Below, in pieces: positions 7,769 to 63,876 of a DNA stretch of 64,000 nucleotides. The notes below the pieces were generated by a model. The model saw only the letters and a program-made list of their open reading frames with translations. It had not been told where the DNA came from and made no database searches. Source of the DNA: Cyanidioschyzon merolae (taxonomy: Eukaryota). The translations under genes and the position numbers were made by a program. The stretch lies in assembly GCA_000091205.1 (NCBI GenBank), contig AP006497.2; one strand, given 5' to 3'. Each line of letters begins with the position of its first letter. The first letter of the stretch is position 1.

Positions 7769-8929
7769 TCAACGAGACCAGCGCAAAAGTCCGCGATGTA
7801 GTTGCACTTCGAGGAGCTCGGCTCCAACCTCTCGTACAAGGCGATTCAGAATGGAGAGCTGCTGCCCCGATTGCGATATCAGGTTCACAACGCAGCCGCG
7901 GCGGTGAAAACGCCCAGTCCGGCCTGCACGATGTGCGTAGTGAATGGGGTCGGTCGGCAAGCCCGCTGCGTTGATGACAAGCCCCACATCCGGGAAATCG
8001 AGACCGCGAGCTGTCAGTTCCGTTGTAACCAGCACTCGAATGATGCCGTTCCGAAAGTAGTCCATGACTTGTGCCCGTTGAAACTTGCTTTTTCGGGGAC
8101 CGCTGCCCTCTATGCGGCCGGATAAGGCTGCCGCAATGACGCCTCGTGCATCGAGTCTCTCTGCGTAAATATCTGCCGTGCGTTGATCAGGCACGAACAC
8201 CAGAGTCTGTATCACAGCTTCGTTGGTGAGTTCAAGATTCTCGGTGCGGAGATGATCGGGATCGTCCCAGGATTGCTTCAGTGGATCCACGGGAGACACC
8301 AGCAATCGGGTGACGGCATAGGTGAGCCTCCGAATGGTGTCCATTCGCAGATGGTCCGGCACCTTGAGGTAAAAATGACGGATGGATTTCGGTAGCAGTG
8401 CCTGGCTGGTGTCGGCACCATGCCCGGTGCGCAGTAGGAATGGTTGCTTACGCGTGCACTGTAGCGCCGTTCGCAAAACGTGCGGCTGATCGCTAGTTGC
8501 CGAAACAAAAACAAACTGGCGCTCCTTTCCAGACGACGTCGGCGAGCGAAAATGGCGCAACAAGCGCTCTGTTTCCTCTAAGTGAACACCTTCGAGCAGG
8601 CGGTCTGCCTCATCGAGCACCACGGTTTCGAACGAGGCCGCGGGAAGCCTACGACCTCTGCGATCGATCATCACCTCGATCAGGCGTCCCGGGGTACCCA
8701 CAATGACCTGCGGTGGCAACTTGCGGAGGCGCTCGAGCTGTCTCTCCACACTGGTCAGGCCGATCAGGCCCTGCGCTCGAATGCTCAAGGATGCAAAACG
8801 CTCACATTCGCGGACGACCTGAACGACTAGTTCCTGACTCGGAACCATGACGAGTAAGGTAGGCGCGCTTCGTGCCGAGCCCCGCTCAATCTCCTCGCAA
8901 AGAGTATCGATCGTTGGTAGCAGATATGC
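7769..8929 (-). CDS. DEAD-box ATP-dependent RNA helicase, exon 2 (motifs Ia through VI)
   Basis: Translation from 8929 reads AYLLPTIDTLCEEIERGSARSAPTLLVMVPSQELVVQ (motif Ia PTRELA-like). Later motifs are TPGRL (Ib), VLDEADRLL (II, DEAD), SAT (III), TTELTARGLDFP (V) and HRAGRTGR (VI). The reading frame stays open upstream of the Met reported in the ORF track, back to an AG acceptor at 8930-8931. Confidence 0.8.
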   Translation of the reverse strand, partial: AYLLPTIDTLCEEIERGSARSAPTLLVMVPSQELVVQVVRECERFASLSIRAQGLIGLTSVERQLERLRKLPPQVIVGTPGRLIEVMIDRRGRRLPAASFETVVLDEADRLLEGVHLEETERLLRHFRSPTSSGKERQFVFVSATSDQPHVLRTALQCTRKQPFLLRTGHGADTSQALLPKSIRHFYLKVPDHLRMDTIRRLTYAVTRLLVSPVDPLKQSWDDPDHLRTENLELTNEAVIQTLVFVPDQRTADIYAERLDARGVIAAALSGRIEGSGPRKSKFQRAQVMDYFRNGIIRVLVTTELTARGLDFPDVGLVINAAGLPTDPIHYAHRAGRTGRFHRRGCVVNLISQSGQQLSILNRLVREVGAELLEVQLHRGLLRWSR

Positions 8930-9230
8930 CTAAACTCGATGCCAGCTCACTTCAATGGTTAGTTTTCTTGTTCGCTTTCAGCAGGAGCACTGAGGCTCGC
9001 GCTTCCGTTGCCCGGCCTGGAGCGGCAGGGCATGACGACTCGAGCGAGTCTCGGTCTCCCGAAGCAACCCTCGCGTCGTTCAACCGACGGAAAGTCTCTT
9101 TGCTCTCGGCCGCATTCCATCGATAGGACGCTAAGCGCTCAGCAACGCGACTGGCGCTCGCCGCCGCGTCGTCCGATCGTCAAACTTCGGCCTAGTTCCT
9201 CAAAGCCGCAGCGCATAATCCATAACTTAC
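8930..9230 (-). other. Spliceosomal intron (301 nt, phase 0) of the DEAD-box helicase gene
   Basis: On the minus strand the donor GTAAGT begins at 9230 and the acceptor TTTAG ends at 8930. Splicing joins ...GSGKTW to AYLLPTIDTL..., restoring the canonical DEAD-box spacing between motif I and motif Ia. Without splicing, the frame hits a stop 12 codons into the intron. Confidence 0.8.
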
Positions 9231-9992
9231 CCATGTCTTCCCGGAGCCTGTAGGCGCCTTAATCACGCCGCTCTGACCTGTTCTCAAAAGAGGAATCGCA
9301 CGACGCTGCACCAAGGTCGGTGCGTTGATGCCGTTTGCAGCCAGTATCGCCCGCACTTTTGCATTCGCGACCAGAGCGGAAAAGTCAGCGTCAGCATTCG
9401 CTATCTCCGCTTCGCTGTCACCGGGTATGAGATACGAGTCTATCAGGGAAGCCGACGCTGCTTCCACCTGCTCAGCTGGGCTCTTTTCGACCGCCGGAGA
9501 CGGCGGCAGCTTCGCAGATGAACCCGAACGTTGCCGTCGCTTTTCACCTGGGGGTGAAGCCAAGGCTTCTTGCCCGTTGCCGTTCCGTTTCTGTGCAAAG
9601 CTAGCTGGTTTACCATAGCCGTTTTTAGGGCCGTCACGAGCACTCGGTGGACCGGAAGCATCCCGACGTCGCGGGCGCTCGCGAGCCATGCACCACCAGC
9701 GATGCCGGCTGTAGCAACGTTCGCTGCTCCTCTCCAAAGCAGTGGAATTGTGCTTTCTCGCTGAGGGCACACTTGGGCTCAACGCAATCCAAGACGGTAT
9801 TTCCGTAATCGCCATCGAAAGAAAACCTCTTGAAGCACGCTCAGCGAAGAGGCCGTCGAGTCCAGCGGTGCCAGGACGCTGTGCACGTCGCCGCGGGGCA
9901 CTGGAATGACCCTCGCCCTCCTGCAACCCGCGCTGCACCTTGTTGTGCTGAACGAGTTGATCGTCGTAGAGGTAATCACGCGGTTTCCGCAT
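9231..9992 (-). CDS. DEAD-box RNA helicase, exon 1 (N-terminal extension, Q motif and Walker A). The start Met is uncertain.
   Basis: Encodes ...GINAPTLVQRRAIPLL (Q motif) and APTGSGKTW (motif I). The codon TGG at 9231-9233 is followed on the minus strand by GTAAGT. The ORF track runs through this into the intron and hits a stop at 9192. The N-terminal ~180 aa is an R/S/G-rich extension. The Met at 9992 overlaps the divergent EVE ORF start, so the real start may be a downstream Met. Confidence 0.7.
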
Positions 9993-10050
9993 GCTTGGAA
10001 CGATATTCGGGACCGGGTTATTGTTCTTGGTCCCAGTAACGCCAACTCTG

Positions 10051-10698
10051 ATGAAACTGCGGAAACGATCACTACCTGGTACTTGTGCTGCGAGCAGTCG
10101 CCGCGCTGGTGCTGTGCGAGCCCAGGTCGAGCGCTCTTCCCCAGAAGCAGAAGCGGTTCAGTTACCCGATCGTTCGGCGGAAAAGATCCAGAAACATCGC
10201 CTTGGAGCGAAGAAGCATGCCGTTGCGTATTATTTGGTAAAAAGCGAGGGTTCAGGGCCGCGCAAGTTCACCGTTGATGACCTTGCGGCGAGTCCTCTGC
10301 GTTGCACCAGCTGGGACGGCGTGCGTAACTTCCAGGCCCGCAACGTGCTACTATCCATGCAACTTGGAGACTTTGCCCTCTTCTATCACTCAAACTGTAA
10401 GCAAGCGGGGATAGTGGGCATTGTCGAGATCGTCCGGGAAGCCTACGTCGACCAGACCCAATTCGATAGCACGGACTCCGAGGCGTACGACCCCCGTGCG
10501 ACTCCCGACAAACCACGCTGGTATGCGGTGGACGTGAAACTTCAGTTGAAGCTACCGCGACCGATTCCGTTCGAGGAGTTGAAACAGTATGCAACGCCGG
10601 GCGGTCCACTGGACGGTATGCTGCTGTTCTCGCAGGCGCGCTTGAGCGTGCAACCGGTGCGCCCGGAGCATTTTCGATTTATTCTCGGCCTTTTTTGA
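10051..10698 (+). CDS. EVE (PUA-like) domain protein, thymocyte nuclear protein 1 (Thy28)-like
   Basis: The ORF is open from 9991. The conserved EVE core reads HAVAYYLVKSEGSGPRKFTVDDL...WDGVRNFQARNVLLSMQLGDFALFYHSNCKQAGIVGIVEIVREAYVDQTQFD...RWYAVDV, preceded by a basic region (MKLRKRS). The start at 10051 is chosen because the Met at 9991 overlaps the head-to-head helicase ORF. Confidence 0.75.
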   Translation: MKLRKRSLPGTCAASSRRAGAVRAQVERSSPEAEAVQLPDRSAEKIQKHRLGAKKHAVAYYLVKSEGSGPRKFTVDDLAASPLRCTSWDGVRNFQARNVLLSMQLGDFALFYHSNCKQAGIVGIVEIVREAYVDQTQFDSTDSEAYDPRATPDKPRWYAVDVKLQLKLPRPIPFEELKQYATPGGPLDGMLLFSQARLSVQPVRPEHFRFILGLF

Positions 10699-14141: not shown

Positions 14142-16988
14142 ATGCGCTGCGCTGCGTCGTTTCAGAGACCCGCAGAGAGCTACCATGATCTGCAGCCTAC
14201 GCTGACATTGCGAACGGAGTGCAACCAACGCAGTTCCCCGGTGAAGCGTCTTGAAACGCGTCCAGTTATCATGCGGTTAGGCGTAGGGTCTTGCCGGTTG
14301 TGGCTGGGCGCATTCGTGTACGCACTGCGTCCCGCTCTGCGAAGAGACGGAAACGTTTGGCAGCAGTGGCGCCGGGCACATGCCCTCGTGCCTGCTGTGC
14401 CTCGACGACGCTGGCTGTGTGCGAACGCCCGCCGTTCGGCTGCTAGTACCTGGGACGAGGAAACGGACGTGGTTGGTGACGAGTTCAGCTCCGTGAACCT
14501 GGTACAGGCGAGCGCGGCAAAGATAACCGAAGGCGACGAGTTCACCGCCCAGCGACTGCAGTTGCTGAACGCGCCTGAGCGCGAGAGCGCTGCCGCCACG
14601 CTCGAAAGGTCACCGCCGCCTGGTGTAACCGTCGTGCGCAACCGCGCAAGTGCGTTGCGCGTGATTGATCGGCTTTGGCAACTTCAGAAAGAGTCGGAGC
14701 TTCTTTACGGACGTCGGGCTGCTTCGGTGCCGAGGCGATGGCGTCTCATAACGGAGGGTTGTACCCACTCGAATGGCAACGGTGTGCTCCACGAGGACAA
14801 CACGCTCCAGTGCAAGCGTCTGTATCCACCGACCGCAGCGGACTGGATGGAGCACTCGCAGTGTTATCACGCTTGGGATACGGAAACCATTGGCATTGAT
14901 CCGACAGAGGACTCCCCTGTTGGGAAAGGTCAGGTGATCTGTCTCTCGGCGTTCTGTGGGCCGCGTGTAGACTTTGGGAATGGACCCCGCCTTTGGATCG
15001 ACAATTTTGGCGACGCACAAGGTACGCTGGACTATTTCAAGTCTTATTTCGAAAATGAGGAAATTCCCAAAGTTTGGCATAACTACAGCTTCGACCGAGC
15101 GGTCCTTTATAACCACGGCATCGACTGTCGAGGATTCGGCGGCGATACCATGCACATGAGCCGACTATTGGACGCAGCGAGACTGCGTTACTCTCTGGAG
15201 GCGCTCACGGAAGACTTTCTGCTGCGGAAGAAACGCAGCATGCGGGAGCTGTTCGGTCGGCCTCGTATTTTGAAAAATGGAAAACCAGGCAAGGAGATTA
15301 TCGTACCGTCCACCAGCGAACTCCAGATGGACCCTGAGACCATGTACCACTGGGTGCAGTATAGCACCTATGATGCCGAGGCAACCTGGTATCTGCGCGA
15401 TAAATTTGAGCGTCTGCTTCGTGAACAGGAGATCCTCGGCTCGGAGCGAACCATGTATGACCTTTATACGGAATGTTTCGTTCCTTTTGGTGCGGTCTTA
15501 ACCGATATGGAACGCATCGGCTTCAAGATTGATATTGCGCGACTCCAAGATGCGCAACGTGTAGCCGAAGCCGACCGCCAACGTTACACTGCAATGTTTC
15601 GAGAATGGGCAGCGCGCTACTGTGCTGATGCAATCCACATGAATGCCGAGTCGGAGAATCAAAAGCGCCAATTCTTTTTCGCCCCGGTCCGGAACAAGAA
15701 AACCGATGAATTGTTGCCAGCAGAGCGCACTTTCGAGGTCGAGAACACGGAACAGGTCGTGGAGTCCGCGGGGAAGAAGCCCCGCAAGAAGCGAACCATA
15801 CAAATATCCGGTCTCGGGCTGCCGCCCGTGGCGTTCACTGCAAGCGGTTGGCCGGCTTGCACGGCGGTGGTGCTGCGGAAACTGGCGGGCACGCCGAGCG
15901 CGAGTCCCGCCCAGGGCGGGCTCCTGTATGACTTTCTCACCAAAGAGCGACGGGAGAGCGCGGAGGATGCGCTTGCGGCGTGCAAAGCCGTTGAGGCGCT
16001 ACTTGAGGCTGGTGCAGTCGGCACCCTGCTCGACAGTTTCATCGATCCGCTGCAGAAGATGGTGGATAAGAACCATCGCATTCATGCGTCGCTCAACTTG
16101 AACACGGAAACAGGTCGGTTGTCGTCGCGGCGGCCGAATCTGCAAAATCAACCCGCTCTAGAGAAAGATCGCTATCGTGTTCGGGATGCTTTCACTTGCG
16201 AGGAGGGCAATACGCTGATTGTAGCGGACTATGGCCAACTCGAGCTGCGATTACTTGCGCATATCGCCAACTGCCGCAGCATGATTGAGGCGTTTAAGGC
16301 TGGTGGCGACTTTCATTCGCGCACGGCGAGCAGCATGTACCCGTACATCGCAGAATCCGTTGCCCGCGGCGACGTGCTTCTTGAACCCGAGCCCAATGCC
16401 AACGGACAGGCCACTTCGTCGAAGCCGCTGCTCAAGGATGTATACGCAGGGGAGCGACGTCGGGCCAAAACACTCAATTTTTCAATCGCATACGGGAAAA
16501 CGCCAGCTGGGCTGGCGCGAGACTGGGGCACCAGCCTGAAAGAAGCTCGCGAGACCGTAGATGCTTGGTACCGGGATCGACCCGAGGTTCGTGCCTGGCA
16601 GGAGCGCGCTATTAAGTTCGCGCAAACCCATGGATTCGTGAAAACGCTGCTGGGTCGACGGCGGCCTCTGCCGGAGATCAACTCCCCGAATACGAATGCG
16701 GCTCGCCATGCGGAACGTGCAGCGATTAACACCCCTCTCCAAGGTAGCGCAGCCGATGTTGTTATGAAAGCCATGCTGCTCATTCATAGCAACGCACGTT
16801 TGGCTGAACTTGGCTGGCGAATGATCCTCCAGGTCCACGATGAGATCATCCTCGAGGGGCCCGAAGAAACAGTCGAAGAAGCGGAAGCAATTGTCGTTCG
16901 GCTTATGCGTCAACCGTTCCGTGAACCGCTGCGCGTTGACCTCGCTGTTTCGGTCGCTCACGCGAAGACGTGGTTTCGTGCAAAGTAA
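14142..16988 (+). CDS. Organellar-type family-A DNA polymerase (Pol I-like, POP-like) with a 3'-5' exonuclease domain and an N-terminal targeting-like extension
   Basis: Exo motifs: YHAWDTETIGIDP (Exo I, DxE) and YSTYDAEATWYL (Exo II). Polymerase motifs: DYGQLELRLLAHIA (motif A), RRRAKTLNFSIAYGKT (motif B) and QVHDEIILEGPEE (motif C). The N-terminal ~100 aa is R-rich and acid-poor (MRLGVGSCRLWLGAFVYALRPALRR...), consistent with an organelle presequence. Confidence 0.85.
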   Translation: MRCAASFQRPAESYHDLQPTLTLRTECNQRSSPVKRLETRPVIMRLGVGSCRLWLGAFVYALRPALRRDGNVWQQWRRAHALVPAVPRRRWLCANARRSAASTWDEETDVVGDEFSSVNLVQASAAKITEGDEFTAQRLQLLNAPERESAAATLERSPPPGVTVVRNRASALRVIDRLWQLQKESELLYGRRAASVPRRWRLITEGCTHSNGNGVLHEDNTLQCKRLYPPTAADWMEHSQCYHAWDTETIGIDPTEDSPVGKGQVICLSAFCGPRVDFGNGPRLWIDNFGDAQGTLDYFKSYFENEEIPKVWHNYSFDRAVLYNHGIDCRGFGGDTMHMSRLLDAARLRYSLEALTEDFLLRKKRSMRELFGRPRILKNGKPGKEIIVPSTSELQMDPETMYHWVQYSTYDAEATWYLRDKFERLLREQEILGSERTMYDLYTECFVPFGAVLTDMERIGFKIDIARLQDAQRVAEADRQRYTAMFREWAARYCADAIHMNAESENQKRQFFFAPVRNKKTDELLPAERTFEVENTEQVVESAGKKPRKKRTIQISGLGLPPVAFTASGWPACTAVVLRKLAGTPSASPAQGGLLYDFLTKERRESAEDALAACKAVEALLEAGAVGTLLDSFIDPLQKMVDKNHRIHASLNLNTETGRLSSRRPNLQNQPALEKDRYRVRDAFTCEEGNTLIVADYGQLELRLLAHIANCRSMIEAFKAGGDFHSRTASSMYPYIAESVARGDVLLEPEPNANGQATSSKPLLKDVYAGERRRAKTLNFSIAYGKTPAGLARDWGTSLKEARETVDAWYRDRPEVRAWQERAIKFAQTHGFVKTLLGRRRPLPEINSPNTNAARHAERAAINTPLQGSAADVVMKAMLLIHSNARLAELGWRMILQVHDEIILEGPEETVEEAEAIVVRLMRQPFREPLRVDLAVSVAHAKTWFRAK

Positions 16989-44941: not shown

Positions 44942-47698
44942 ATGGGTCGGGCTCGGGAGCCCGCGTATCGTAAGAGGGGTTTTCAACGGACCTGGATCAG
45001 CAAAGTTTATCTGGCAAACTTAGGCGAGTCATCGGCGGTGGATGAAACGCAGTCCCCAAACCTCGGTCTAACGTGCTGGGCACCGTCGATATGTCCTGCT
45101 AGCCAGCACGGACGTGCTGGCGCTTTCCTCCCGCTGGCTTCTGGACCAATTGTTGGCCTCCTGAGGCACCGCCCGGACCGCAGAGAGCGCCTCCAGACGA
45201 GCTTGAACGCTCGGAGCGCCACCGCGGAAGCGAAACGCTTCTTTCTCCAGCGGCGTCGATGCCACCATGCACCGCAAGCCTTTTCTAGGGCGCTTCATAC
45301 ACCGCCGAGAGGCCAGCGCACGCTGCATGACTCCCAGTTTTTGGGAAGAGCAAGTGAGTTTCACCGACCTTGTCTGCTACGGCGACAAGCACGTGCACCA
45401 TGGTCCTTGTGCATGGAGCAAGGCGACCGCGCTTCCGCTTCGGAGCGTACAACTCCTCCGCGTACCGCAAATGACGTTCAGCAAGGCATCCAAGAGGCAA
45501 GTCAGCGAAAAGCCGGTGCACGAAGACACCCGGGGCGGCGTTTTGCTGCGTTTACGCAGATGCTGGCCCGTCGTTCGACCTACCGCGATGGCCTCGTGCT
45601 GCTCCTGCTCGTACTGCTGGCATATGCCATGGCGGGAACCACGAGTTATGCCATAACGCAGCGCTATGATCCAAGTGCGGTACGAATATCGTGCGACCCG
45701 CGCGTGCTACCGGCGTACGGTTTCCAGTCGCTCATGAGACTGGTACTGGCCTACGGATTCTCACTGGTATTCTCGTTAATCTACGCGTACATTGCGTACA
45801 GGGCCTCGTTTGCTGCGCAAGTGCTGCTTCTCATTATTGACGTTTTGCAATCCGTCCCTATTCTCGCTTTTGTCCCAGCAGCAGTGCTGGGCCTGATCGC
45901 CATGTTTCCAGGGCAACGCATTGGGGTCGAGCTGGCAGCGATGCTGTTGCTCTTCACCTCGATGGCGTGGAATATGCTTCTTGGCTTTTACCAGTCCCTA
46001 ATATCCATACCGCCGGACCTGATGGAGGCAGCCAGAATACTGCGACTCTCAGCGTGGCGGCGTTTTTGGTTGCTGGAAGCGCCTTCGGGCGTGTGCTCCC
46101 TCGTCTGGAACTCCATTATCTCCGTGTCCAGCGGGTGGTTCTTTCTGATAAGCATCGAGAGCTTCTCACTGGGGCCCGGCAGAGAATATCGTCTGCCGGG
46201 CTTGGGAAGTTTCCTTGCTGAGGCTGCGGATCGAGGCAATATGCGCGCGATCTTCTGGGGTCTGTTCACTGTAGTGTCGCTTATTATCTGCATCGATATG
46301 TTGATCTGGCGTCCGCTGATCGTCTGGAGTGAGCGCTTCAAGTTCTCGACGAACGCCAGTTCCGGCATCGGGGCGATCAGTTCGCTGCAGAGGAAGGCAT
46401 CGCGCTCGCCTTCGTCGTCGTCGTCTGGGCTGCGTTCGTCACTGGGGTCGGACGCTAATTTCGCGGATGAAGACGACGACCGCGAGAACGATAACTACGA
46501 CGACGACGACGACGATGATGATGAGAATGACGCGTCTTCTTTCGCGTGGGCTGGTGCACCACGTCGGCAGTTCCGTGTTCTGGAGCTTGTCCAGATACCG
46601 GATGCAACCGCGAGTGCCACAAGCAGCGCGCCCGGACTCGCGATCATGCACAGCATCGAAGGTGAGTCTGCTCCCGGAGCCGAGCAGGTTGTCATCCAAC
46701 AACGCGAACTGGACGCACCACGAAGCATCGTGTTTGCATATTTCCAGCGCTCTCCATTGATGCGTGCCGTTCACCGGCGATTCTTTCTGCCTCTCTGGCA
46801 GAAATTCATTGATGCAGACGTGATCTGGGAGCGTGCAACGGAAACAACTTCCCAGACGCTGGCACTAGCCTGGAAGCGCGTGCATCAGCCGCATCTGTTG
46901 CTGCGGCTCTGGGGCTTTATGGTTCGTTTGCTTACATGGAGCAGTGTGCTGGGCATCGCCTGGTTGGCGTTTCTGGCGTTTCGCGTTGCCCACCACGCGC
47001 TACGGATTCTGCAGACGATTTCGTGGCGCTCGTGGATCACCATTCTGAGCTGTGCTGGACTGACCTTTGGTCGTGTGCTGACGGCTTTAGCGCTCTCGTT
47101 ATTATGGACAGTTCCACTGGGGGTTGCTGTCGGGTGCTCACCGGCACTGGCTCGCGTCCTCCAGCCGCTAGTCCAGATCGCTGCTTCCGTGCCAGCGACG
47201 GCAGTATTCCCGTTTCTGCTCCTGGGGTTAGCGAATTTCGGCGGGCTTGGCTTGCAGATTGGCTCGATCCTCTTGATGATGTTCGGCACGATGTGGTACA
47301 TTCTGTTCAACGTCATTGCAGGTGCTGCAGCGATTCCCGCGGAGCTCTGGGAAGTTGACGCGGTTTACAACAAGGCCACAGACTCGTGGCTTGCTCGCCA
47401 GTGGAGACGATGGCGCTTTCTCATCCTGCCCGGTATCTTCCCATACCTCATCACTGGTATTGTTACGGCTGTTGGAGGCGCGTGGAATGCGAGCATCGTT
47501 AGTGAGTACGTCCAGTTCCAGGGCCAGATTTTATCGACCAAAGGTCTGGGGGCGCTCATATCGAACGCAGCGGCTCGTGGTGATTTACCGTTGCTGTTAG
47601 CGGGGACCCTGGTCATGTCTAGTTTGGTGCTGCTCACGAATCGTTTTGTCTGGGCGCCACTCTACAAGTTAGCGCGTGAACGCTACACGCTCAACTAG
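44942..47698 (+). CDS. Bacterial-type ABC importer permease: two fused BPD_transp_1 (binding-protein-dependent transport inner-membrane) domains, NitT/TauT- or FbpB-like, joined by an acidic linker
   Basis: EAA motifs occur in both halves: MEAARILRLSAWRRFWLLEAPSGV in the first, and ELWEVDAVYNKATDSWLARQWRRWRFLILPGIFPYLITGIVTAVGGAWNASIVSEY...GLGALI in the second. There are about 6 TM helices per half. A poly-Asp/Asn linker (DEDDDRENDNYDDDDDDDDEND, encoded by (GAC)n) separates them. The N-terminal 206 aa are R/A/P-rich low complexity, so the real start may be the Met at 45560 (MLARRSTYRDGLVLLLLVLL). No ABC ATPase or solute-binding protein ORF is present in the window. Confidence 0.8.
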   Translation: MGRAREPAYRKRGFQRTWISKVYLANLGESSAVDETQSPNLGLTCWAPSICPASQHGRAGAFLPLASGPIVGLLRHRPDRRERLQTSLNARSATAEAKRFFLQRRRCHHAPQAFSRALHTPPRGQRTLHDSQFLGRASEFHRPCLLRRQARAPWSLCMEQGDRASASERTTPPRTANDVQQGIQEASQRKAGARRHPGRRFAAFTQMLARRSTYRDGLVLLLLVLLAYAMAGTTSYAITQRYDPSAVRISCDPRVLPAYGFQSLMRLVLAYGFSLVFSLIYAYIAYRASFAAQVLLLIIDVLQSVPILAFVPAAVLGLIAMFPGQRIGVELAAMLLLFTSMAWNMLLGFYQSLISIPPDLMEAARILRLSAWRRFWLLEAPSGVCSLVWNSIISVSSGWFFLISIESFSLGPGREYRLPGLGSFLAEAADRGNMRAIFWGLFTVVSLIICIDMLIWRPLIVWSERFKFSTNASSGIGAISSLQRKASRSPSSSSSGLRSSLGSDANFADEDDDRENDNYDDDDDDDDENDASSFAWAGAPRRQFRVLELVQIPDATASATSSAPGLAIMHSIEGESAPGAEQVVIQQRELDAPRSIVFAYFQRSPLMRAVHRRFFLPLWQKFIDADVIWERATETTSQTLALAWKRVHQPHLLLRLWGFMVRLLTWSSVLGIAWLAFLAFRVAHHALRILQTISWRSWITILSCAGLTFGRVLTALALSLLWTVPLGVAVGCSPALARVLQPLVQIAASVPATAVFPFLLLGLANFGGLGLQIGSILLMMFGTMWYILFNVIAGAAAIPAELWEVDAVYNKATDSWLARQWRRWRFLILPGIFPYLITGIVTAVGGAWNASIVSEYVQFQGQILSTKGLGALISNAAARGDLPLLLAGTLVMSSLVLLTNRFVWAPLYKLARERYTLN

Positions 47699-62327: not shown

Positions 62328-63407
62328 CTACGGTGCAGGTCGATCGAGCAGTGCTGGATCCAGCTTGCAGTGCAGTTCCTGCTGCGCTTCGAATAGGCGA
62401 AGGAACGCCTCAACGGCGGCACGTGTATCCGCTCGCCAGCAGAGTGTCGCCCTCAGCTTATCGATAGATGATCTCTCCGCTGCACTATCGTTGTGCGCTG
62501 ACGCTGTATCCAGCGGAAGATAGCAGCGTTGCCGTAGGGTAGACTCTGGCCACTGGCCTCCTTCCGCCGGTACCAGCTCGAGAACGCGCCCCAGGAACCA
62601 GAACGTCACCGCCGGTCGACGAAGCGTGCCTTTCCCGTCCAAAGAGTCAGTACACGGGACCGCTTCACAGAGACTGCAGTGCCGAACCAGCGGTCGAAGT
62701 AGTTGCACACGGGCACCGGCCTCCTCGAAGGCCTCGCGACAGGCCGCAGCAGCGGGTGTTTCACCGACCTCGACACCGCCGGCCGGTAAGATGTAACGGG
62801 CTGGCTGTTGCCCCGCTTGTCGCTGATTAGCGCCGTCGCTGGTTTGATGTCGAGACGTCACAGCTAGGATGAAGCGCTCATCCGGTGACAGGGCCAACAC
62901 ACCGGCTCGCACGCGAGCATCCAAGGCGCTCCGGTCGGCGGAAAGCCTCTGGGCACAGCGGCACGGCTCGAAGCCAGTCACAGTTTGCCATCCGAGCTCC
63001 GAGACTGAAGCTGGTGTATCGTCCGACATTATAGGGCGGCTCAGACCCCACCGCGCTACTGGTCTGGGGGTCGCATTCCCGCAGACCTTGTGCTTTGGTA
63101 CCCGCGAGCAACGCAGAAGCCGGTCAACGTCGCTGTTGCGCACTGTTCGAAACGAAGCGCTGTACGCGCAGGGTAACGTTTGTGTGAATCGAAACGCTTC
63201 TCTGCGGCTGTGTTCGCTGCTCGGGCGCCTTCGGGGACGCATGGCTACCTTAAGCTTCCTTTTCGGTACGTCTTCTGCCAGGTTCACTTCAGGACACGAT
63301 GCATGGTCGCGGGCGGGTGTCCGAGCGTCGTGGAACGTGGCGCCAGCCCAGCGTTTGCCCCGAGCGAAGGTCGGACTGCGGACCCTGGTGGCGCGCACCA
63401 AGAGCAC
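62328..63407 (-). CDS. NUDIX hydrolase. The likely true start is the Met at 63029, since the upstream ORF extension overlaps the SmpB gene.
   Basis: Nudix box GGVEVGETPAAAACREAFEEAGARV (G-x5-E-x7-REUxEExGU). The C-terminus is unique. The ORF upstream of the Met at 63029 is R/S/P-rich and overlaps the opposite-strand SmpB ORF. Confidence 0.7.
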   Translation of the reverse strand: MLLVRATRVRSPTFARGKRWAGATFHDARTPARDHASCPEVNLAEDVPKRKLKVAMRPRRRPSSEHSRREAFRFTQTLPCAYSASFRTVRNSDVDRLLRCSRVPKHKVCGNATPRPVARWGLSRPIMSDDTPASVSELGWQTVTGFEPCRCAQRLSADRSALDARVRAGVLALSPDERFILAVTSRHQTSDGANQRQAGQQPARYILPAGGVEVGETPAAAACREAFEEAGARVQLLRPLVRHCSLCEAVPCTDSLDGKGTLRRPAVTFWFLGRVLELVPAEGGQWPESTLRQRCYLPLDTASAHNDSAAERSSIDKLRATLCWRADTRAAVEAFLRLFEAQQELHCKLDPALLDRPAP

Positions 63408-63876
63408 CTCGAGTCCTAGCGTCGAAAACCGTCGAATAAACTTTCAGTATGAGGTTCTTTGGACCTTGGAATGTGGAATAGAGCTCAAAGGAACGGAGAT
63501 TAAGTCGGTGCGGGCGGGGAAGATGAACATCCGAGACGCGTTTGCGCGGGCGAAGCGAGGAACCAACGACCTCTGGCTCTATAACTGCCATATTGCGCCA
63601 CATGACCGAACAGCGACGTTCTTCAACCACCAACCGACACGACCTCGCCGTCTCTTAGCGCATAAACAGGAAATTCGGCGGTTGCTGCAGGCTCAAGAGG
63701 AAAAGGGACTTACGCTGGTACCGCAGCGGTGTTACTTCGACCAGCGCCAGCGGCTGAAAGTGCTGCTCGCAGTCGCCCGTGGTAAGAAACTTCACGACAA
63801 ACGCGAGAGTATTCGGGAACGTGACGAGGCACGTTCCATGAAACGATTCGCCAAATACGACCTGAGAGACTTGTAG
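63241..63876 (+). CDS. smpB: SmpB (tmRNA-binding trans-translation protein) with an N-terminal organellar presequence-like extension. The ORF is open from 62869.
   Basis: The core is colinear with bacterial SmpB: NFQYEVLWTLECGIELKGTEIKSVRAGKMNIRDAFARAKRGTNDLWLYNCHIAPHD...RRLLAHKQEIRRLLQAQEEKGLTLVPQRCYFDQRQRLKVLLAVARGKKLHDKRESIRERDEARSMKRFAK (cf. E. coli GKKQHDKR). It is preceded by about 65 aa of S/T/A/R-rich, acid-poor sequence starting at MATLSFLFGTSSARF. Confidence 0.85.
   Translation: MATLSFLFGTSSARFTSGHDAWSRAGVRASWNVAPAQRLPRAKVGLRTLVARTKSTSSPSVENRRINFQYEVLWTLECGIELKGTEIKSVRAGKMNIRDAFARAKRGTNDLWLYNCHIAPHDRTATFFNHQPTRPRRLLAHKQEIRRLLQAQEEKGLTLVPQRCYFDQRQRLKVLLAVARGKKLHDKRESIRERDEARSMKRFAKYDLRDL

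Follow-up and report, generated by a model that had tools for sequence, protein, structure and literature searches.

A conserved, covarying element with features of an H/ACA snoRNA in the intron of a Cyanidioschyzon merolae helicase gene

The helicase gene and its intron

We analysed a 64,000-nt stretch of contig AP006497.2 of Cyanidioschyzon merolae (the window, whose positions serve as coordinates throughout), the minus strand of which carries a gene for a bacterial-type DEAD-box RNA helicase. Positions 9230-8930 of this strand are, practically beyond doubt, a canonical GT-AG spliceosomal intron in a nuclear gene. The interior of the intron holds a conserved and covarying element (Table 1), and we lean towards regarding it as a previously unannotated, intron-hosted box H/ACA small nucleolar RNA (snoRNA) aimed at a pseudouridine (Ψ) in helix 38 of the large subunit (LSU) ribosomal RNA (rRNA).

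On the minus strand, the first exon ends in ...KAPTGSGKTW with the codons AAG ACA TGG (K-T-W), the TGG occupying 9233-9231, and GTAAGT follows directly. The frame reopens at 8929 with GCA TAT CTG CTA CCA, which yields the protein sequence AYLLPTIDTLCEEIERGSARSAPTLLVMVPSQELVVQ (AYLLPTIDTL...PSQELVVQ), and stays open as far as the stop at 7769. Between the two exons, the intron (9230..8930) measures exactly 301 nt, lies in phase 0 and has TTTAG at its 3′ end. An earlier sequence-only reading of this DNA had described the same succession, from a Walker A motif APTGSGKTW ending at TGG, through GTAAGT and a TTTAG 301 nt further on, to GCA TAT CTG, and all these elements were located as it claimed, phase 0 included. 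Since 301 leaves a remainder of 1 on division by three, read-through is frameshifted, and the unspliced reading is stopped after 12 codons (peptide GKTWVSYGLCAAALRN). This is why the program-made list of open reading frames (ORFs) shows the helicase as two ORFs (9192-9992 and 7769-8848), one of which enters the intron and stops there, as had been noted.

The third strong signal of the intron is a yeast-like branch site, AACTAAC, with the branch A 29 nt from the intron 3′ end. The termini with an extended 5′ consensus, the branch motif at a fitting distance and the restoration of both reading frame and domain are those of a U2-type GT-AG intron. The 3′ region reads CTAACCATTGAAGTGAGCTGGCATCGAGTTTAG; the last 29 nt before the acceptor are purine-rich, TTT alone precedes the AG, and no polypyrimidine tract was found upstream of the 3′ splice site. 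The splice signals had been given earlier as GTAAGT and a poly-Y AG, of which GTAAGT and AG hold and the poly-Y part does not. A polypyrimidine tract is dispensable in yeast-like introns. The acceptor is the first YAG past the branch site, and the three non-YAG AGs between the two (AAG, GAG and GAG, within 8950-8930) are passed over, so that the intron could be a natural test of 3′ splice-site choice without U1 and many other factors. To our knowledge, C. merolae has no U1 snRNA.

Splicing restores one helicase. The spliced product gives one continuous Pfam DEAD match of 118.5 bits over profile positions 2-161, together with Helicase_C (E-values 3.3e-34 for PF00270 and 5.8e-18 for PF00271), while the unspliced ORFs taken separately give DEAD matches of 21.7 bits (profile 2-30) and 69.8 bits (profile 51-161). 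The set of superfamily 2 DEAD-box motifs is complete over the two RecA-like domains (Q motif, GSGKT, Ia, DEAD, SAT, VI). The junction is gap-free in alignments to CshA (B. subtilis-type, PDB; 1.9e-35) and to intron-less bacterial DEAD-box proteins. The profile check that the sequence-only reading had proposed for the spliced translation thus came out as it expected. Its remark on the spacing of motifs I and Ia is borne out as regards continuity across the junction and needs a correction in naming, since AYLLP comes straight after motif I, and motif Ia corresponds to PSQELVVQ.

The intron itself is not new. The 90% cluster of the exon-2 ORF includes the curated C. merolae 10D protein BAM81608.1 / XP_005537644.1 (UniRef100_M1VJR7; 581 aa, 'similar to ATP-dependent RNA helicase'), which reads ...GSGKTWAYLLPTIDTL... 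at the junction. It stems from the same locus and carries exactly this junction, so that the intron is already part of the reference annotation; by itself, the finding of the intron adds nothing new. The open frame of exon 1 reaches upstream to an ATG at 9992, whereas the annotated protein (P0284 / BAM81608.1) begins at M60 of that frame (window 9815); from M60 on, it is identical to our spliced translation, including GSGKTW/AYLLP. Together with the shared position in relatives and the eukaryotic gene content of the window, the reference protein upholds the earlier claim of a spliceosomal intron in a DEAD-box helicase gene of eukaryotic nuclear DNA. What we add to the known intron is the conservation of its position across cyanidiophytes and the conserved, covarying RNA element inside it. 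The annotation of the 10D gene, as far as it was visible, makes no mention of an intron-internal RNA.

Beyond cyanidiophytes, the best matches of the helicase are the bacterial-type DEAD-box proteins CshA, DeaD and RhlE (30-35% identity), which share the full motif set. Unlike them, the algal protein has an N-terminal extension of ~180 residues rich in R, S and P, possibly an organelle-targeting sequence, and a 45-residue insertion between the RecA domains. An EVE-domain gene (ORF 9991-10698, plus strand) diverges from the helicase gene, which lies on the minus strand with its annotated start at 9815; the two are at most ~200 nt apart (window 9815-10021), which implies a very compact bidirectional promoter region.

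Conservation of the intron among cyanidiophytes

We compared the orthologous introns of C. merolae, Cyanidiococcus (locus L012 from GCA_013995675.1 and the near-identical L005) and a more distant cyanidiophyte (L006). In Cyanidiococcus, whose helicase shares ~75% protein identity with that of C. merolae, a 297-nt intron follows GSGKTW at the same codon boundary. In L006 (52% protein identity), a 304-nt intron follows GSGKTF, again at the same boundary. GTAAGT, CTAAC and YAG are found in all lineages, and read-through is blocked by a stop or a frameshift in all three.

When ~9.5 kb of the locus were compared between C. merolae and Cyanidiococcus by blastn, the only alignable non-coding DNA was an intron block at 9131-9101; the intergenic spacers of the same region have all diverged past detection. 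Several blocks are invariant even in the 52% relative L006, namely GUUUGACG, then CGAUGGAAUG.GGCC.AGAGCA, and an ACA near the branch site. Judged by this pattern of sequence conservation, the interior of the intron is under selection. In one metagenome scan, the conserved intron block recovered the same organism (L008, L009 and L011) and two chance matches in bacterial coding DNA (L007 and L010).

The relatives also showed some features of their own. The intron of L006 (5876-5919) offers two YAG acceptors in frame, CAACAG and CACAG, at a distance of 18 nt; if the proximal one were used, RAPSTQ would be inserted immediately behind Walker A, which makes alternative 3′ splice-site use possible in this lineage. 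For Cyanidiococcus yangmingshanensis (VWRR01000004.1; L012, 14219-15700), the NCBI annotation has only a 273-aa DEAD fragment (14555-15376), and the intron and exon 1 were therefore missed there. This gap in the annotation of the genome is of practical relevance. Exon 2 of the same locus displays an apparent stop or frameshift (...KFQRD*), and about three tandem copies of a unit of ~50 codons lie upstream of its Q motif.

A structured element inside the intron

Three hairpins (HP1, HP2 and HP3), an H-like box and a candidate ACA box can be drawn within the intron, and together they delimit a putative RNA of ~227 nt (Table 1). HP1, the hinge, HP3 and the tail are present in all lineages; the hinge additionally contains HP2, and the alignment of HP3 is poor.

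Table 1. Features of the helicase gene, its intron and the putative RNA element, in window coordinates.
Feature	Position	Strand	Remarks
Helicase coding exon 1	9231..9815	-	annotated start MAITEIPS; Q motif and Walker A (APTGSGKTW); Pfam DEAD profile 2-30
Helicase coding exon 2	7769..8929	-	motifs Ia to VI and stop; ORF 7769-8848 plus 27 upstream codons; Pfam DEAD, Helicase_C
Spliceosomal intron	8930..9230	-	301 nt, phase 0, GT-AG; junction as in the reference annotation; position shared with L012/L005 and L006
5′ splice site GTAAGT	9225..9230	-	invariant across all four orthologous introns
Putative intron-hosted H/ACA-like RNA, ~227 nt	8966..9192	-	base of HP1 to ACA+3; ends inferred; from conservation pattern and folds
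HP1	9108..9192	-	5-bp basal stem GGCCG/CGGCC, internal loop of 8+8 nt, covarying upper stem
5′ loop strand AAGUUUGA	9180..9187	-	GUUUGA invariant; perfect 8-nt complement of LSU segment UCAAACUU (Rfam LSU consensus)
3′ loop strand AUGGAAUG	9113..9120	-	invariant; 4 contiguous pairs with CUAU of yeast/consensus LSU
AGAGCA, H-box-like (ANANNA)	9101..9106	-	hinge; invariant in all lineages; 1 nt past the basal stem
HP2, short hairpin	9066..9096	-	between H-like box and HP3; minimum free energy fold per lineage
HP3, long 3′ hairpin	8974..9065	-	closed by GCUUC/GAAAGC; sequence poorly conserved
ACA box candidate	8969..8971	-	2 nt after HP3, 6 nt before CTAAC; GCGAACAAGA identical in C. merolae and Cyanidiococcus
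Branch site ACTAAC (CTAAC 8962-8958)	8958..8963	-	CTAAC kept in all lineages; branch A to 3′ end 29 nt, 41 in L006
3′ splice site TAG	8930..8932	-	first YAG after the branch site

The best supported part is HP1. The span from its GGCC to AGAGCA measures exactly 92 nt in the three lineages despite diverged apical sequence. The basal stem GGCCG/CGGCC is replaced by GGCCC/GGGCC in L006, and the upper stem differs in sequence and stays paired. Between the two stems lies the internal loop with its two 8-nt strands, NNGUUUGA and AUGGAAUG. On the gap-free alignment of HP1, 90% of cells are paired, compared with 20-47% when the partner strand is slid; compensatory double changes occur in 5 of the 15 pairs, and the observed values were matched by none of 500 shuffles. 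RNAalifold independently recovers HP1 as well as HP2, the latter with compensatory changes in its pairs 106-113/120-127. The apical part of HP1, otherwise diverged, contains a GCGGC at 9163-9167 (alignment columns 26-30) that is invariant in the three lineages.

The arrangement of the loop resembles that of a guide RNA, in that AUGGAAUG and GUUUGA are invariant while the flanking stems covary. Only the first two nucleotides of the 5′ loop strand vary between lineages (AA, AC, UG), and they lie at the outer edge of the predicted duplex. In all lineages, the first nucleotide of AUGGAAUG is 14 nt upstream of AGAGCA, a distance that falls within the 14-16 nt used as a criterion for H/ACA RNAs. At the other end, an ACA follows HP3 after 2 nt in each lineage (L006 has stem-GC-ACA-CAG), and the closing stem of HP3 is reversed in L006 to GAAGU/ACUUC. 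The fold of the whole intron is not exceptional when compared with shuffles (z = -1.35), and the case for the element therefore rests on covariation and motifs and not on folding energy.

Predicted rRNA target

The internal loop of HP1 predicts a target of the form 5′-CAUUCCAU-U-N-UCAAAC-3′. As a lead, we ranked candidate sites on yeast rRNA sequences (1800, 3396 and 158 nt, the lengths being right) instead of the rRNA of the alga itself, and checked the resulting site against Rfam. The best contiguous complement in the yeast rRNAs is at 25S U1042 (...CCUAU-U-C-UCAAACUU...) with 12 pairs, the next-best site reaching 9 in total. On yeast and Rfam consensus LSU, the 3′ arm contributes 8 Watson-Crick pairs to the 12 at U1042, and the other 4, which are contiguous, are formed by the 5′ arm. 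UCAAACUU begins 2 nt 3′ of the yeast Ψ1042 position, and the invariant GUUUGA faces a universally conserved UCAAAC. The Rfam eukaryotic LSU consensus reads ...CCuaUUgUCAAACUU... at the site, in agreement with the yeast context. The same context is found in a genuine but unrelated eukaryotic LSU fragment from IMG/VR (L108; RF02543, 104 bits), with the consensus gaCCuaUUgUCAAACUUUAAAU.

Ψ1042 of yeast 25S rRNA lies in helix 38 (the A-site finger), is guided by snR33 and is conserved as Ψ1769 in human 28S rRNA (PMC2794176 Table 1; PMC5699541). Of 1957 shuffled loops, only 34 (1.7%) had one of the 44 known yeast Ψ positions as their top-ranked site. A scan of prokaryotic genomes for a fully complementary helix-38 arm returned 11 chance matches only.

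We propose no target for HP3, because C. merolae and Cyanidiococcus do not share its loop sequences. The 5′ strand of HP3 in L006 (5790-5800) includes AAGUUUGAG, where a further 9 nt are complementary to the LSU segment already named (CUCAAACUU). It may hint at a duplication of the guide hairpin or may be a coincidence.

Nature of the intronic element

The class H/ACA is favoured by invariant single-stranded blocks between covarying stems, by the presence in the hinge of an ANANNA motif, 14 nt beyond the loop top, and by an ACA after the last hairpin. With slightly more confidence than doubt, we suggest that the intron was retained amid near-total intron loss because it hosts a functional small RNA, most likely an H/ACA snoRNA of ~227 nt (9192-8966). 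Accumulation of this RNA, binding of the H/ACA proteins and the true target are what we infer from the sequences compared.

If this is correct, the RNA would be released by splicing and debranching of the intron and trimmed by exonucleases to a core protected by the ribonucleoprotein (RNP), from the base of HP1 to ACA+3, ending just 5′ of the branch site. The 5′ hairpin would offer a pseudouridylation pocket of 8+8 nt, its top 14 nt upstream of the H-like box AGAGCA. The two pocket strands would base-pair with the 25S rRNA segments that flank the helix-38 uridine corresponding to yeast Ψ1042 and human Ψ1769, and this uridine would then be isomerised by Cbf5. The second half of the RNP would come from the 3′ hairpin and the ACA box, with no conserved guide.

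Several points weigh against this assignment. Neither C. merolae nor L005 nor L006 gave a match to any Rfam H/ACA family at E ≤ 10, a result that bears on homology to the described families and not on the class of the RNA. The architecture is atypical in that an additional hairpin, HP2, separates the H-like box from HP3, and HP3 lacks a conserved pocket. Weak pairing between the two pocket strands (G.U, U-A, U-A, U.G, A-U) is possible, and HP1 could accordingly be one long irregular helix. As to the target, the 5′ arm pairs over just 4 contiguous positions with yeast or consensus rRNA, which leaves the rest of the invariant AUGGAAUG unexplained, and the ranking made use of yeast rRNA and the Rfam consensus in place of the alga's rRNA. 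Pairing length alone is unremarkable, since 214 of 2000 shuffled loops (~11%) reached at least 12 pairs, and yeast 18S U894, in a variable helix, is an alternative site with 12 of 14 pairs, non-contiguous. The covariation is drawn from three independent lineages only. Finally, a study of the intronic RNAs of C. merolae reports C/D snoRNAs and RNase MRP and no H/ACA RNA (bioRxiv 10.1101/2025.12.01.691491).

Searched at gathering score, the whole window contains no Rfam family, and permissive scans of the intron and two orthologous loci yielded sub-threshold noise only. We also considered other RNA classes. A box C/D snoRNA was rejected, as the only indication was a sub-threshold match to sR44 (13.8 bits against a gathering threshold of 45, E = 1.1) and, while a UGACGA is kept, no D box is conserved in the orthologues. 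For the CAB box of a small Cajal body-specific RNA and for RNase MRP, the motifs are absent or not conserved.

The element could be a different kind of functional structure within a genuine intron, either a stable RNA of the 'sieRNA' type with another function in trans or a cis-element that controls splicing or expression of the helicase, by autoregulation or as a protein-bound site. We give this a substantial probability, short of even. Geertz et al. (bioRxiv 10.1101/2025.12.01.691491) count 23 intron-hosted stable RNAs in C. merolae, made up of 11 box C/D snoRNAs, RNase MRP RNA and 11 unclassified 'sieRNAs' (stable intronically-encoded RNAs); the last are reported there as highly structured RNAs of unknown class, some with three-helix junctions of a sort that HP1, HP2 and HP3 could form. 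In position and conservation, the helicase-intron element fits the sieRNA class. The missing match to any Rfam snoRNA family, the ability of the HP1 loop strands to pair together and the presence of HP2, atypical for an H/ACA RNA, all agree with such a structure as well. For regulation in cis there is a parallel in the yeast DEAD-box gene DBP2, which is autoregulated via a conserved intron. Against this, one would not expect an autoregulatory helix to unite an ANANNA box at exactly 14 nt from a loop of 8+8 nt, an ACA immediately behind the last hairpin, loop strands that stay invariant while their stems covary, and a conserved Ψ as the site of the best rRNA match.

Far less probable is that the intron interior serves no purpose in itself and owes its conservation to slow divergence or to constraints on splicing efficiency alone. 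The comparison of only three lineages and the ordinary z-score of the overall fold would be compatible with this. Yet the intergenic spacers of C. merolae and Cyanidiococcus can no longer be aligned, the intron retains invariant blocks of 8-22 nt even in L006 with its 52% protein identity to C. merolae, the hairpin length is kept to the nucleotide and the stems carry compensatory changes. The idea that there is no intron at all (but two genes, a pseudogene, an assembly frameshift, a group I or II intron, a mobile element or a C/D snoRNA gene between ORFs) is suggested by prokaryote-style gene calls on metagenome contigs, which give two ORFs of 266 and 359 aa, and is effectively refuted, as neither ORF is a complete helicase core (Walker A lies on one, motifs Ia-VI on the other), the split with its GT...CTAAC...YAG recurs in independent assemblies and three lineages, 301 nt are far too short for a group II intron, no Rfam group I/II or other family is present, C and D boxes are not conserved and the curated reference protein BAM81608.1 is spliced at this very junction.

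Comparison with known guides and implications

The putative H/ACA RNA of the helicase intron would share its predicted target uridine with yeast snR33 and with the guide of human 28S Ψ1769, and its box layout is similar to theirs. The agreement extends to the 5′ loop strand, which complements the same invariant UCAAAC(UU) stretch. We detected no homology to either of them at the level of sequence or of Rfam families. The element also differs from snR33 in being intronic and in having an extra hairpin in the hinge, and its target was read from yeast and consensus rRNA. The yeast snR33 is an independent gene. As with intron-encoded snoRNAs generally, the guide would be released from the spliced and debranched intron of a host gene related to RNA metabolism. 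The predicted 3′ end (ACA+3) is only 3 nt before the branch-site CTAAC, a spacing much closer than in animal introns, where the distance between snoRNA and branch site is usually much larger.

Unlike the intronic RNAs described by Geertz et al., among which no H/ACA RNA is mentioned, the helicase-intron element has H/ACA-like boxes and geometry. Their text does not name the helicase as a host gene (bioRxiv 10.1101/2025.12.01.691491), and in the literature searched we found no host-gene list tying the helicase intron to a named sieRNA or snoRNA. Nor did we find a description of H/ACA snoRNAs of C. merolae in the searchable literature. Within the limits of that literature, there is about an even chance that the intron encodes the first H/ACA guide recognised in Cyanidioschyzon, with helix 38 as its target.

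The number of introns in C. merolae was given as 27 in the original annotation (PMC4829280) and stands at 39 in the latest count (Geertz et al., bioRxiv 10.1101/2025.12.01.691491). Because all but a few dozen introns were discarded and U1 snRNA is lacking, each surviving intron is a test of why introns persist. Strains with deleted introns are already under construction in this alga. If the H/ACA assignment is true, there would be a simple functional reason for keeping the helicase intron across deeply diverged cyanidiophytes, and an H/ACA snoRNA would be added to an organism for which only intronic C/D snoRNAs have been reported so far. At least some of the 'sieRNAs' of unknown class would then be highly diverged H/ACA snoRNAs, a reclassification that can be tested. 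Guides for rRNA modification, and not a new class of RNA, would in that case explain which introns outlived the near-total loss.

Genomic context and other observations in the window

The window carries genes on both strands, and their content is eukaryotic and algal: V-ATPase subunit d, Vps4, a bZIP factor, a UBX/TUG protein, a protein kinase and phosphoacetylglucosamine mutase, and further an organellar-type family-A DNA polymerase, a plastid-type phosphate translocator and SmpB with an N-terminal extension. V-ATPase d shows 85% identity to Cyanidiococcus yangmingshanensis, 57-58% to other red algae and 53% to Galdieria. Next to the helicase lies a translocator (TPT) whose protein matches the 'probable glucose 6 phosphate/phosphate translocator' of C. 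merolae 10D at 100% identity, by which the window is identified as C. merolae nuclear DNA. The same sequence was also recovered from hot-spring metagenomes. A kinetoplastid source, considered because trypanosomatids are well known for a cis-spliced DEAD-box helicase gene, was discarded in view of the genes on both strands and the red-algal taxonomy. No tRNAs were found in the window.

The sequence-only reading had seen in the helicase intron a calibration of splice signals for finding other interrupted genes in the unassigned gaps. As a mark of eukaryotic nuclear origin the intron is sound, but this expectation failed. A scan of both strands of the 64-kb window for GTAAGT...CTAAC...AG found no second intron; the three other candidates (37989-37932, 3998-2831 and 1429-492) were rejected on inspection, as none joins coding sequence, and the gaps are intergenic spacers of an ordinary kind. 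The two strands of the window together have just 10 copies of GTAAGT and 4 of the full GTAAGT...CTAAC...AG arrangement, the latter compared with ~27 in mononucleotide shuffles. The shortfall may reflect a depletion of cryptic splice signals or simply dinucleotide bias.

Three other ORFs deserve a remark. The SmpB homologue (62869-63876, plus strand), which has a significant Pfam match and an N-terminal extension of ~180 residues, is nuclear-encoded and probably supports trans-translation in the plastid. A NUDIX-domain ORF (62328-63407, minus strand), also with a significant Pfam match, overlaps it by ~540 nt on the opposite strand. Lastly, a nuclear ORF of 918 aa (44942-47698) contains, in two stretches, the permease domain of bacterial binding-protein-dependent ABC transporters (BPD_transp_1) and probably encodes a transporter of bacterial origin that is targeted to an organelle.

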